Positions 1 through 15,546 of a DNA stretch of 32,000 nucleotides are shown here, in pieces; the first letter of the stretch is position 1, and every line of letters starts with the position of its first letter. Source of the stretch: Candidatus Altimarinota bacterium. GTDB taxonomy: Bacteria > Patescibacteriota > Gracilibacteria > UBA1369. Below the pieces are notes generated by a model. The model was not told the origin of the DNA. It searched no databases and worked only from the letters and a program-made list of their open reading frames with translations. The position numbers were made by a program, and so were the translations under genes. The stretch spans positions 1 through 32,000 of the forward strand of contig JBAZYK010000007.1 in the NCBI GenBank assembly GCA_041659405.1, read 5' to 3'.

Positions 1-56
1 AGGATAACTTTAAGTTTGAACGCTCCATCGTACTGTTTCCGTATACCTTTTGGCAT
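1..56 (-). CDS. Partial 5' end of an IS3-family-like transposase OrfA (HTH N-terminus); gene runs off the left edge
   Basis: Minus-strand ATG at 56-54 followed by MPKGIRKQYDGAFKLKVI. The basic stretch plus Y-x-x-x-F-K-L-x-V pattern is typical of IS3/IS911 OrfA N-termini. Only 18 codons are visible and the ORF is not in the track. Confidence 0.35.
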   Translation of the reverse strand, partial: MPKGIRKQYDGAFKLKVI

Positions 57-166
57 AATTTTTGGGGTTAAAAACCTCTCTTAGCATACCCCATTTTTCT
101 GTCCGATTTTGCGGGACCATTATAGAAAGTCTATTTTTCTTATAATGTAATGGGGCAATATTAATA

Positions 167-1253: not shown

Positions 1254-1487
1254 AAAAAATGGCTCCGAGCAGAGCTCGGGGACAGTTTTTTGAATTTGGG
1301 TATAGAGCGGAGTCGAAGTTTACACCCGGAGGGTGAATCCCTCATCCCCAGCCAACAGATTTGCGGAGCAAATCCGGACCCGCCTTGGCGGGTCCAAAAA
1401 CAAACGTTTGCGAAGCAAACACATTTTATAGAAGAGCGGATGAGAAGTTTATCCCCCGGAGGGGTAAATCCCTCGTTACTTTTTTTC
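1214..1487 (+). ncRNA. Candidate structured non-coding RNA locus (hairpin array); ends are approximate
   Basis: The predicted start lies just after the -10 at 1199-1207. Consecutive GC-rich hairpins sit in an AT-rich context:
- 1263-1270/1274-1281 (loop AGA);
- long imperfect hairpin 1305-1343 (inner CACCC-GGA-GGGTG);
- 1358-1374 (GATTTGC-GGA-GCAAATC);
- 1376-1395 (GGACCCGCC-TT-GGCGGGTCC);
- 1406-1420 (GTTTGC-GAA-GCAAAC);
- a second copy of the long hairpin at 1434-1474 (inner CCCC-GGA-GGGG), followed by a T run at 1480-1487.
The overlapping 109-aa TTG-start ORF looks like a by-product of these hairpins. Confidence 0.45.
1263..1291 (+). terminator. Terminator/attenuator-like hairpin inside the ncRNA locus
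   Basis: 8-bp stem CTCCGAGC/GCTCGGGG with AGA loop, then ACAG and T6 (1286-1291). An A7 run (1253-1259) lies upstream. It would yield a ~78-nt RNA from the copy B promoter. Confidence 0.4.
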
Positions 1488-1502
1488 TAAATTAACGTTA
1501 TA

Positions 1503-1524
1503 CTTACTGCGCAGTAAGATTTTT
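1503..1524 (+). terminator. Intrinsic-terminator-like hairpin upstream of the 1537 gene
   Basis: Perfect palindrome CTTACTGC|GCAGTAAG (1503-1518) followed by ATTTTT. Confidence 0.45.
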
Positions 1525-1536
1525 AACCCAAATAAT

Positions 1537-5418: not shown

Positions 5419-5507
5419 AAATTTGGTAGCATTCGGCCTTCATAGTATCGCGAAGTGCTTCTTTTGCAAGCTGAAAGGCGCCATTGAACTGTCTCGTTTT
5501 GTAATTC

Positions 5508-5561
5508 TGCTATAATGAGCCCGATCAATCTGGAAAGGTATTAGACCCGACTGGTCAGCCA
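5508..5561 (+). promoter_or_regulatory. Conserved promoter-plus-leader block, copy C (TGCTATAAT at 5508-5516; motif 5522-5561)
   Basis: ...CCGATCAATCTGGAAAGGTATTAGACCCGACTGGTCAGCCA. Same spacing and 3' half as copies A and B. It lies ~150 nt upstream of the first gene of the Z1/Dcm/HNH operon. Confidence 0.6.
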
Positions 5562-5572
5562 ATGATAGAAAA

Positions 5573-5648
5573 GAGGGTGAGAAATTTATACCCCGCAGCA
5601 AAGCGAAGGGGGAAATCCATTATCCTCCAGCTAAAAATTGAGGATAAT
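5573..5648 (+). other. Leader hairpin module plus 9-bp hairpin in the 5' UTR of the Z1/Dcm/HNH operon
   Basis: GAGGGTGAGAAATTTATACCCC...GGGGGAAATCC (5573-5618) resembles the long hairpin modules at 1305-1343 and 1434-1474. It is followed by the perfect stem ATTATCCTC/GAGGATAAT (5619-5627/5640-5648), which shares its CCTCC with the module's closing stem, so the two folds are alternatives. Confidence 0.35.
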
Positions 5649-13076: not shown

Positions 13077-13502
13077 ATGGTTAACAATATTTTTGAAAAG
13101 ATCAGGCATATTAATGAGCATGGTCAGGAATTTTGGAGTGCCAGGGAACTGATGCCTGCTTTGGGATATACCGAATGGAGAAAATTTGAGGGTGTAATTG
13201 CGAAAGCTAAAGAAGCGTGCAAATCCAGTCAACAAGCACCATCCGACCATATTGGCGGCGCCGCCAAAATGGTTTTAGTAGGTTCTGAAGCCGAAAGAAA
13301 GGTCGATGATTATTTTTTATCGCGTTACGCCTGCTATTTAATCGCTCAAAATGGTGATCCAAGAAAAGAAGAAATCGCATTTGCTCAAACTTATTTTGCG
13401 ATTCAAACTAGAAAACAGGAATTGCATGAAGATTTGTTGGAAGATCATAAACGGGTTTCTTTGCGCGGAGAGATGACTGTTCAGAATATCCACTTTATGT
13501 GA
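13077..13502 (+). pseudogene. dinD: Truncated DinD-like (DNA-damage-inducible protein D family) gene, N-terminal half only
   Basis: The 141-aa ORF aligns by eye with the first ~140 residues of E. coli DinD (...WSARELM..LGY..., KAKEAC, LSRYACYLIAQNGDP, AQTYFAIQTRKQEL, KRVSLR). The family is ~270 aa. I found no convincing continuation in any frame of 13503-13700. Confidence 0.6.
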
Positions 13503-14949: not shown

Positions 14950-15546
14950 TTATTTCTGTCGAGAAAGATGGAATTCTCCTTTTAGGACTCCGGAAGGGGT
15001 GTTGAGCGACATTGCTCCGCTCATGATATCTGTTGTAAAGCTGCCTGCCATTACGGTGCCTTCGGGGGTAGTAAATTCGATCGCGCTTCCGCTAATTTTC
15101 ATAGTAACAGGTTGAGCTCCACTATTTGGATTGCAGGTTTTTGGTACGGAAAATGTTTTAACTCCCGGGACAGTTGTTTCGCCGGTGGCACACATATTGG
15201 AGTAAGTAATTTGACCATTGCCAATGTTGTTTTCCACACTGTCTATTTTTAACTCGATATCGCCGTCTTCATAAACTTTAGTAGTGGCTGGACCGGTTAC
15301 AAACACACCATATATTTGAAATCCTTTGCCCCTAAGGCTGGAAGACCATGTGCCTCTTAGGTCGCGAGCAGGTGTTAATGTCCCGATGAGTGGTTTTGGA
15401 GTAACTATGTCGTTGACTTTTTGTGATACGAACTGAAACATCAGCGGTTGCTGTGTGGCAACATAGACTCCGCCAACGGTAGCTACGGTTAATCCTCCAA
15501 TTAAAAGTTTGGAAACTAGAGATATTCCCGGTGTTGGATTTATCAT
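14950..15546 (-). CDS. Hypothetical secreted/membrane-anchored protein
   Basis: 198-aa ORF with an N-terminal hydrophobic helix (LLIGGLTVATVGGVYVA). No motif recognised. Confidence 0.6.
   Translation of the reverse strand: MINPTPGISLVSKLLIGGLTVATVGGVYVATQQPLMFQFVSQKVNDIVTPKPLIGTLTPARDLRGTWSSSLRGKGFQIYGVFVTGPATTKVYEDGDIELKIDSVENNIGNGQITYSNMCATGETTVPGVKTFSVPKTCNPNSGAQPVTMKISGSAIEFTTPEGTVMAGSFTTDIMSGAMSLNTPSGVLKGEFHLSRQK

Follow-up and report, generated by a model that had tools for sequence, protein, structure and literature searches.

What kind of element is a compact row of GC-rich hairpins that lies between two genes? The question arises near the start of contig JBAZYK010000007.1 (contig 7 of GenBank assembly GCA_041659405.1) of a Candidatus Altimarinota bacterium, where positions 1254 to 1525 of the forward strand, between an Mrr-like gene and a gene for a lipoprotein-like protein, fold into consecutive hairpins. 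Positions refer to the window, by which we mean the whole stretch of DNA that was analyzed (32,000 nucleotides [nt], the first of this contig); other contigs of the same genome are given by number. A sequence-only reading of this stretch had likened the locus to protein-sequestering RNAs of the CsrB/RsmZ type and had named as alternatives a tandem riboswitch or attenuator and a cluster of REP/MITE-like palindromes. We find that the locus does not code for protein and is a mosaic assembled around a tRNA-Gln 3' end rather than a dedicated regulatory RNA gene. Most probably (at roughly 75%), it is a patchwork of miniature tRNA-linked repeats (TLRs) derived from tRNA-Gln and of a tRNA-Gln trailer, displaced from the tRNA gene to which they once belonged.

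A tRNA-Gln 3' end and trailer within the hairpin row

Two features overlooked in the sequence-only reading identify the locus: positions 1335 to 1354 are the 3' end of tRNA-Gln, and positions 1355 to 1428 are the trailer of a tRNA-Gln gene. The first of these closes a complete miniature TLR, which we call TLR1 (1254 to 1354, + strand) and which comprises a terminator-like hairpin and a minihelix. The hairpin, stem A (1254 to 1291, + strand), was recovered both in the minimum free energy (MFE) fold and in a terminator scan; in it, A6 (1254 to 1259) pairs with T6 (1286 to 1291) around an inner stem CTCCGAGC/GCTCGGGG (1263 to 1281, + strand) with the loop AGA. The 5' arm of the minihelix, TGGGTAT-A-GAGCGGA (1297 to 1311, + strand), is complementary to the tail, that is, to the 3' strands of the T-stem and the acceptor stem, with one mismatch and two bulges. 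Between arm and tail, a loop module (1312 to 1337, + strand) consisting of GTCGAAGTTTA, a hairpin P2, and AA stands in place of the T-loop; P2 (1323 to 1335, + strand) reads CACCC GGA GGGTG and presents GGA in its loop. The tail GAATCCCTCATCCCCAGCCA (1335 to 1354, + strand) reproduces exactly the final 20 nt of tRNA-Gln, T-loop through CCA, and agrees at 20 of 20 nt with the ends of tRNA-Gln(UUG) on contig 5 (c[1433-1507]) and of tRNA-Gln(CUG) on contig 16 ([13272-13345]). TLR1 thus has the kind of tail that marks the TLRs of Escherichia coli, whose last 18 to 19 nt equal the end of a tRNA or rRNA encoded in the same genome. The MFE fold of 1254 to 1354, in which the 5' arm pairs with 1338 to 1350, consists of exactly stem A and the minihelix with a free GCCA. 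The 21-mer at 1335 to 1355 is 100% identical in many genomes of the order.

TLR1 is followed by a native-type tRNA-Gln trailer (1355 to 1428, + strand; fold z score, -5.0) with the hairpins H1 (1358 to 1374, loop GGA), H2 (1376 to 1395, loop TT within CTTG), and H3 (1406 to 1420, loop GAA), all on the + strand. Because positions 1335 to 1428 are 92% identical to the 3' end and trailer of tRNA-Gln(UUG) on contig 5 (1358 to 1452), H1 to H3 are simply that trailer, and their motifs occur in just these two places in the genome. What sets the two trailer copies apart is an indel of 1 nt and, in H2, one compensatory pair. The H2 difference, an A-T pair changed to C-G together with a complemented loop (TT in one copy, AA in the other), looks as if the center of the palindrome had been flipped.

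Two further copies of the module are decayed. TLR2 (1425 to 1486, + strand) retains a helix P1, formed by GAGCGGAT (1434 to 1441) and ATCCCTC (1468 to 1474), a loop GAGAAGTTTA (1442 to 1451), and a P2 (1452 to 1466, + strand) with the loop GGA. In place of the tRNA tail it has GTTAC and T7 (1475 to 1486), which matches no tRNA, and the terminator scan marks 1459 to 1474 plus the T-run. TLR3 (5562 to 5629, + strand) is a short-form, Gln-type copy that runs GAGGGT-GAGAAATTTA, an extended P2 (TACCCCGCAGCAAAGCGAAGGGGGA), AAATCC, and a diverged tail, ATTATCCTCCAGC. Its extended P2 is of the type seen in two Gln-linked copies from other loci (L025 and L036), in which an inner stem homologous to that of stem A also occurs (YYGAGC-GAA-GCTCGR). 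With their tRNA tails decayed, TLR2 and TLR3 lack the tail identity by which TLRs are defined.

The claim of the sequence-only reading that 1305 to 1343 and 1434 to 1474 are copies of one module of about 40 nt, with the inner stem changing from CACCC/GGGTG to CCCC/GGGG around a constant GGA loop, holds: they are direct-repeat copies and true repeats. So does the proposal of a third module in the leader of the Z1/Dcm/HNH operon. R1, a covariance model of the module built only from copies in the Peribacteria order, was run against the whole genome and matched 1296 to 1354 (51.8 bits, E = 4.5e-11), 1425 to 1478 (41.7 bits, E = 3.3e-8), and 5562 to 5629 (38.8 bits, E = 2e-7); TLR1 is part of the R1 seed and matches by construction, whereas TLR2 and TLR3 lie outside it. 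A fourth match, on contig 4, brings the total to four copies in 1.51 Mb. This copy lies 40 nt behind tRNA-Ser(UGA) and copies the last 19 nt of that tRNA (18/18 tail match), and its P2 is the same as that of TLR1, which suggests exchange between units. The module is thus attached to different tRNA ends, and in each case the strand on its 5' side is complementary to the tRNA end that accompanies it. No tRNA gene lies upstream of the window copies; TLR1 and TLR3 are preceded by a tRNA-Gln-like block instead, and the window copies are displaced relatives of TLRs rather than canonical members.

The module behind tRNA genes of many bacteria

Copies were gathered by a pattern search and then with R1, first in the order, then in the phylum, and then in about 185,000 species genomes, and yielded 137 distinct copies. 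In the cross-phylum set the pattern itself fixes AKKMGAAGTTTA and RAATCC, so that part of the conservation of these letters there is built in; neither the order-level set nor the E. coli matches described below are affected.

The copies are tied to tRNA genes. For 103 of the 137 copies (all sets, from relatives and at least 8 other groups), a tRNA gene on the same strand lies within 260 nt upstream, with a spacing peak at 50 to 61 nt, and the copies from the scan of about 185,000 genomes have a tRNA directly upstream in 68 of 91 cases. Of the 57 unique copies in the order, 32 have a tail that matches the tRNA just upstream at 18/18 positions; these tRNAs are Ser, Gln, Tyr, Val, Lys, Glu, Asn, and Arg. 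Altogether, the tRNA species in front of the module number at least 11, and the arms match in every case. Canonical units measure about 55 to 180 bp. In the long form, a hairpin with a stability of -8 kcal/mol or better starts no more than 6 nt from the tRNA end (58 of 66 copies) and is usually the terminator of the tRNA, a GC stem between an A-run and a T-run; a short form without a terminator-like hairpin was also seen, and units occur in tandem arrays (L015 and L030).

The direct repeat formed by tRNA end and tail begins in the T-loop, at AATCC, and is usually 19 nt long, sometimes extending into the terminator (26 to 78 nt). Where the tRNA gene has no CCA, neither has the repeat. The tail therefore copies the gene rather than the mature tRNA, and the units are DNA-level tandem repeats and not retro-copies. 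At two loci of Candidatus Falkowbacteria (L131 and L184), the tail has CCA though the adjacent tRNA gene does not encode it. At three others (L033; L040, in genome G148; and L134), the tRNA-Ser tail is split by an 18-nt palindrome, CTGCCTRCCGGCAGGCAG, before ...TCTCCGCCA, which resembles a second small insertion inside the repeat. Rfam family sX4 (RF02223, a Xanthomonas small RNA [sRNA]) gave subthreshold matches of 28 to 39 bits (gathering score, 70) at three loci with tRNA-Ser plus about 25 nt (L018, L022, and L030); these cover the tRNA-Ser genes and the start of the next repeat, and the sX4 model may itself contain tRNA-Ser-like sequence.

Among Candidatus groups, carriers were found in Peribacteria, Peregrinibacteria, Gracilibacteria, Falkowbacteria, Paceibacterota, Woesebacteria, Komeilibacteria, and Moraniibacteriota. 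Other carriers belong to Oscillospiraceae and other Clostridia, Bacteroidales, Saprospiraceae, uncultured Gammaproteobacteria, Bdellovibrionales, Armatimonadetes/Fimbriimonas, Verrucomicrobiae, and Actinomycetes and include Algoriphagus chordae DSM 19830. The spread is patchy: 35 of 151 genomes of the order (E ≤ 0.01) have up to 11 copies each, 13 of 151 genomes of the phylum (E ≤ 1e-4) have the module, and R1 found no match in a genome of the same genus (G001).

Consensus structure and covariation

The module comprises a T-stem-like helix, a loop beginning AUGAGAAGUUUA or AUUCGAAGUUUA, a covarying hairpin, AAAUCC, and the exact last ~19 nt of a tRNA. Over the 137 copies, the consensus reads A, then UGA, UUC, or GUC, then GAAGUUUA, the hairpin, and GUAAAUCC. 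The window copies match R1, whose frame (T-stem-like helix, ANNNGAAGUUUA, P2, RAAUCC, and a tRNA-type tail) defines membership. In tRNAs, the T-loop motif is U-N-N-R-A, and the loop starts UGAGA, UUCGA, and GUCGA fit it. The loop of P2 is GGA in 38 of 137 copies and GAA, UUU, or a longer hairpin in the others; three copies of intermediate size (L069, L089, and L091) have insertions of 50 to 80 nt in P2. A small open reading frame (ORF) starting at the AUG of AUGAGAAG was rejected, given P2 lengths that vary out of frame and the many copies with UUC or GUC.

Pairing is conserved through sequence change. P2 is 98.5% paired, with both sides changed in four of its five pairs, and covariation extends to the three outer pairs of the T-stem-like helix: their 3' strand is a copy of tRNA sequence, and each pair shows 23 to 36 double changes. 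For the whole structure, 91.5% of cells are paired, compared with 75.8% in shuffles and at most 57% with slid partners, and 152 cells in the structure alignment show a change on both sides. The duplex of the 5' arm with its own tail averages -9.6 kcal/mol versus -6.9 kcal/mol with non-cognate tails.

Relation to the E. coli repeats

TLRs are defined by 18- to 19-bp identity to the end of an upstream tRNA or rRNA, and E. coli K-12 has 22 of them (PMC8144298). They have been known in E. coli since 1978 and include RtT/rttR of tyrT-tyrV, the serX repeats, and RrA, RrB, and RrF behind 5S rRNA (Egan and Landy, 1978, and Rudd, 1999, cited in PMC8144298); their function was stated to be unknown (PMC8144298). 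In the literature that we searched, TLRs are discussed only for enterobacteria, and no such elements are described outside E. coli.

R1 matches three rttR units and the inter-tRNA unit of E. coli tyrT-tyrV. Over the whole of E. coli K-12 it gave seven matches at E ≤ 1, all of them at the tyrT/tyrV rttR repeats or behind serX. These matches share the frame GG-AUGAGAAG...AAUCC-tail, with GGAUGAGAAG...AAUCC in the alignments, and coincide with Rfam RtT matches (RF00391 finds the E. coli units at 46 to 137 bits). The RtT consensus has the same closing helix and a GGAUGAGAA...UAAUCC frame around its interior.

The tRNA-Gln-like block and its genomic context

The place that a tRNA gene would be expected to occupy relative to TLR1 is taken by a promoter-plus-leader block (1199 to 1253, + strand), which has an extended -10 element, TGCTATAAT (1199 to 1207), followed by AAAGGTACTAGACCCCACTGGTCAGCCA (1226 to 1253). 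The latter resembles the 3' end of tRNA-Gln, with 14 of 28 positions alike by eye, and ends in CAGCCA. Judging by its -10 element, the block would work as a promoter. Repeat comparison revealed another copy, ending in GACTGGTCAGCCA, directly before TLR3 (block 3; 5507 to 5561, + strand). In all, the genome has five block copies, at 167 to 221, 1199 to 1253, and 5507 to 5561 in the window and at 15260 to 15287 and 16375 to 16402 on contig 16, so that every one lies either near the contig 16 tRNA-Gln(CUG) gene or in the first 5.6 kb of contig 7. Their common pattern is TGCTAYAAT, ~11 nt, AGTCCAGAAARGGTACTAGACCC, ~8 nt, and CAGCCA. The sequence that follows the contig 16 tRNA-Gln(CUG) gene recurs behind two blocks. 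Elsewhere, the block occurs in arrays 0.1 to 4 kb downstream of tRNA-Gln in two genomes (G006, contig 40; G021, contig 35), and in a third (G102) it stands directly before a Gln-type TLR, the same arrangement as in the window.

The block resembles a pseudo tRNA-Gln 3' end that is carried by an element and marks the borders of small cassettes, here those with the Mrr-like gene, a 323-amino-acid (aa) protein, and the Z1/Dcm/HNH operon. Its arrangement would correspond to the pattern expected of tandem islands that entered at the tRNA 3' end, namely, attL, attP-like junctions, attR, and then old downstream DNA, represented by TLR1. One alternative, that the block tail (CTGGTCAGCCA) belongs to a tRNA missing from the assembly (tRNA-Asn, for instance), was rejected: no such tRNA end was found in 36 family genomes. 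ARAGORN identified 41 tRNA genes on the 21 contigs of the genome (98.5% complete) and neither tRNA-Asn nor a transfer-messenger RNA (tmRNA), both of which may sit in unassembled repeats.

Window positions 1 to 127 repeat, in reverse complement, the final 127 nt of contig 16 (16776 to 16902), a length equal to the k-mer length of the assembler, and bear a start like that of IS3 OrfA (MPKGIRKQYDGAFKLKV...). Contigs 16 and 7 both run into the same IS3-like repeat end, and their adjacency is thus not established. The only two tyrosine recombinases of the genome are on contigs 11 and 4. The gene on contig 11 (57530 to 58003) lies about 750 nt from tRNA-Ser(GGA) (56696 to 56785), and the two likely belong to a conventional tRNA-targeted island.

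Other features of the locus

The description of the locus as a GC-rich hairpin row is borne out: GC content is 0.515 across 1201 to 1400, compared with 0.40 for the 1.51-Mb genome, the RNA of 1215 to 1540 folds far more stably than shuffles on either strand (z = -5.4 and -5.2), and the hairpins and loops previously listed are present. A terminator scan found seven sites where 1.3 were expected, among them 1263 to 1291 and 1459 to 1486, in agreement with two of the terminator-like structures proposed earlier. The third (1503 to 1524, + strand), read from the sequence and the fold, is a hairpin CTTACTGC/GCAGTAAG (stem, 1503 to 1518) followed by ATTTTT, and it lies 13 nt 5' of the ATG (1537) of the 156-aa lipoprotein-like gene. 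It has no repeat or family match and stands outside the TLR family.

The 109-aa ORF with a TTG start (1161 to 1490, + strand), which had been judged non-genic, can be rejected as a gene: it spans the block, TLR1, the trailer, and TLR2, it has no Pfam match, and the 1-nt indel in the paralogous contig 5 trailer breaks its frame. ARAGORN found neither a tRNA nor a tmRNA in the window, and Rfam searches (the whole window at the gathering threshold and 1150 to 1560 at E ≤ 10) returned only chance-level matches.

Proposed explanation and its rivals

We propose that the unit consists of a terminator-like hairpin and a minihelix in which the 5' arm would close on a copy of the tRNA-Gln T-stem and acceptor 3' strand, with the T-loop replaced by (A)NNNGAAGUUUA, P2, and AAAUCC and with a 3' end ...GCCA. 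In other genomes such units form tandem arrays behind the matching tRNA, beginning inside its T-loop. They are made and kept identical in DNA, for which the simplest route would be gene conversion or unequal recombination involving the 19-nt repeats. If E. coli RtT and RrB are a guide, a unit would be transcribed through read-through of the tRNA terminator and, because it mimics the acceptor and T arm, might be cut out by tRNA-processing enzymes. We suggest that displacement came about through small islands inserted at the tRNA-Gln 3' end: with the tRNA replaced by the block ending in CAGCCA, the window copies would have become displaced, and two of the three would now be decaying relics. What has been observed is the anatomy of the units, their linkage to tRNA genes, their copying at the DNA level, their covariation, and their relationship to E. 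coli TLRs; transcription, processing, upkeep and changes in copy number through recombination between the 19-nt repeats, and island insertion are the parts that we supply.

Several points weigh against this explanation. The assembled tRNA-Gln array contains no integrase or serine recombinase, which tells against island insertion, and the island account relies on a join of contig 16 to contig 7 that the assembly does not establish. Unequal recombination alone fails to account for a module that stands behind many tRNA species with matching arms, and single-stranded positions are strongly conserved across phyla, a hint of some function beyond that of a relic. Acceptor-like pairing of the 5' arm is partial: it is present in about half of the cells of a gapless alignment, and 15 of 41 copies rank in the top 10% against non-cognate tails. 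Finally, RF00391 (gathering threshold, 45 bits) gave no match on 1150 to 1560 at E ≤ 10 and none on 16 canonical miniature loci at E ≤ 1.

The best surviving rival, which we nevertheless think unlikely, holds that the copies are working RNA parts, transcribed from the block promoter and cleaved like tRNAs by RNase P and 3'-end enzymes, which would serve either as punctuation for the lipoprotein and Z1-operon mRNAs or as a trans-acting, CCA-ended minihelix, e.g., a decoy, in this defense-rich region, for factors that bind or attack tRNA 3' ends. The loop start, which fits the T-loop motif, and the loop nucleotides kept from Patescibacteria to E. coli are in its favor, as are the intact TLR1, which folds as a minihelix, and the extended -10 element (TGCTATAAT) 47 nt upstream of TLR1 and likewise before TLR3. 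E. coli RrB, moreover, is processed beside its repeated 3' end (PMC8144298). Against these stand the loss of the tRNA tail in TLR2 and TLR3, the placement of stem A, a good terminator, directly behind the promoter, and the same-genus genome G001, which is without any copy and from which it follows that nothing essential depends on the element.

That the repeats are scars of integrase insertion is less probable again. On this account an element recombined in the T-loop of the tRNA and left the direct repeat, with the module as an arm-type (P) site; in a variant, the 5' arm and tail would fold in single-stranded DNA and mimic the end of a tRNA gene, as integron attC or CTX-phage attP does. The direct repeat does run from the T-loop to the tRNA end, most commonly over 19 nt, an arrangement that a 2002 survey by K. 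P. Williams is said to treat as the signature of tRNA-targeted islands. The copying of the gene rather than of the mature tRNA, the patchy distribution and variable copy number, and the P2 shared by the unit behind tRNA-Ser and the Gln-type TLR1 would likewise suit scars. The units themselves, however, are short, carry no cargo, and have no recombinase gene nearby, and the T-loop, the would-be crossover site, is split by a structured insert of 25 to 40 nt. The covariation in P2 and the arms is that of a folded strand, and the presence of the module at 11 or more tRNA species, each with matching arms, would require improbably many changes of specificity.

The structure in the 5' region of the lipoprotein gene, with terminator-like hairpins at 1459 to 1486 and 1503 to 1524, would suit the tandem riboswitch or attenuator that had been suggested for that gene, but we regard this as highly improbable: no Rfam family matches, the conserved parts track upstream tRNA genes whatever lies downstream, and 1355 to 1428 is duplicated behind the contig 5 tRNA-Gln gene, beside a different gene. 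The REP/MITE-like alternative came nearest of the options put forward earlier, in that the locus does consist of a repeat element; it fails in the scattering that it implies, as there are four copies in the genome and, elsewhere, copies lie on the tRNA strand directly behind the tRNA. The CsrB/RsmZ analogy deserves next to no credence, despite three GGA loops in 270 nt and the binding of CsrA and Hfq in vitro by E. coli RrA, RrB, and RrF, the rRNA-operon TLRs (PMC8144298), since neither CsrA (PF02599, for which the controls were positive) nor Hfq was found in the 98.5% complete genome, no Rfam family matches the locus, GGA is a minority among P2 loops, and only the rRNA-linked E. coli TLRs are predicted CsrA binders, the tRNA-linked ones scoring <0.01 (PMC8144298).

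Two narrower candidates were rejected. A homing guide RNA of the CAST or TnpB type with a tRNA-matching spacer was dropped in view of the contig 5 similarity, which runs 75 nt past the tRNA end, of canonical units without a nearby protein gene, and of a 5' arm that pairs with the supposed spacer. The idea that module 2 had freshly inserted into a CCTC target was abandoned, as the pairwise alignment past ~1427 proved not significant.

Significance

The module reveals a small conserved core of the family, consisting of the tRNA 3'-end helix, ANNNGAAGUUUA, one hairpin, and AAAUCC, that is common to bacteria of the candidate phyla radiation, Firmicutes, Bacteroidota, and E. coli. This core is compact and can be aligned, which makes it suited to structure probing, to assays with RNase P, and to deletion tests, and a cultured strain, A. 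chordae DSM 19830, is among the carriers. For annotation, it accounts for GC-rich "hairpin islands" and duplicated tRNA 3' ends that would otherwise be read as sRNAs, att scars, or small ORFs.

We tentatively raise, as a possibility that we find rather doubtful, that the miniature TLR is an ancient cross-bacterial unit with a conserved partner, either a CCA-ended minihelix RNA for a universal tRNA-handling factor or a strand that mimics the 3' end of a tRNA gene and thereby copies itself behind such genes. In the minihelix version, the RNA would be made from tRNA operons, and the T-loop motif, GAAGUUUA, and the hairpin may act as an elbow mimic. In the window, the cassettes that target tRNA-Gln and bring in the Mrr and Z1/Dcm/HNH defense genes may also use the tails of these units as additional landing sites. 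If the unit were indeed ancient and had such a partner, it would provide a minimal, comparably structured model of about 60 nt for the 45-year-old question of the E. coli TLRs.

Comparison with known systems

With RNAs of the CsrB/RsmZ type, the locus shares hairpins in a row, some with GGA loops; it differs in the lack of a detected CsrA, in the unconserved GGA, in the lack of a family match, and in the tie of its units to tRNA genes. Attachment sites of islands at tRNA genes (attL and attR) likewise form a direct repeat from the T-loop to the tRNA 3' end, a likeness that probably applies to the neighboring block arrays behind tRNA-Gln. The TLR units are unlike them in having neither cargo nor integrase, in the structured insert within the would-be crossover region, and in their covarying arms.

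Minihelices of tRNA acceptor and T arms and the tRNA-like elements that RNase P processes have in common with the module a coaxial acceptor-like and T-stem-like helix, an unpaired N-CCA 3' end, and a loop start in the form of the U-N-N-R-A pentamer of the T-loop. The T-loop of the module, in contrast, has an additional conserved GUUUA and a hairpin, and its acceptor pairing is often imperfect.

The closest relatives are the E. coli TLRs. Like the miniature units, they lie on the same strand directly behind a tRNA gene, carry an exact copy of the last 18 to 19 nt of the tRNA, occur as one to several tandem units, and are closed by a helix of the 5' arm and the copied tail around the letters GG-AUGAGAAG ... 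(U)AAUCC. For E. coli rrB, transcription by terminator read-through and processing of RrB next to its repeated 3' end have been described (PMC8144298). The E. coli units are larger, with a multi-stem interior of 82 to 91 nt in a unit of about 130 nt, whereas the miniature ones have a single hairpin of 12 to 27 nt in about 60 to 75 nt, are missed by RF00391, and occur far beyond enterobacteria; the window copies differ further in being detached from their tRNA. As judged by sequence and predicted fold, the window modules are a miniature variant of the RtT-type TLRs of E. coli and belong to the same family.

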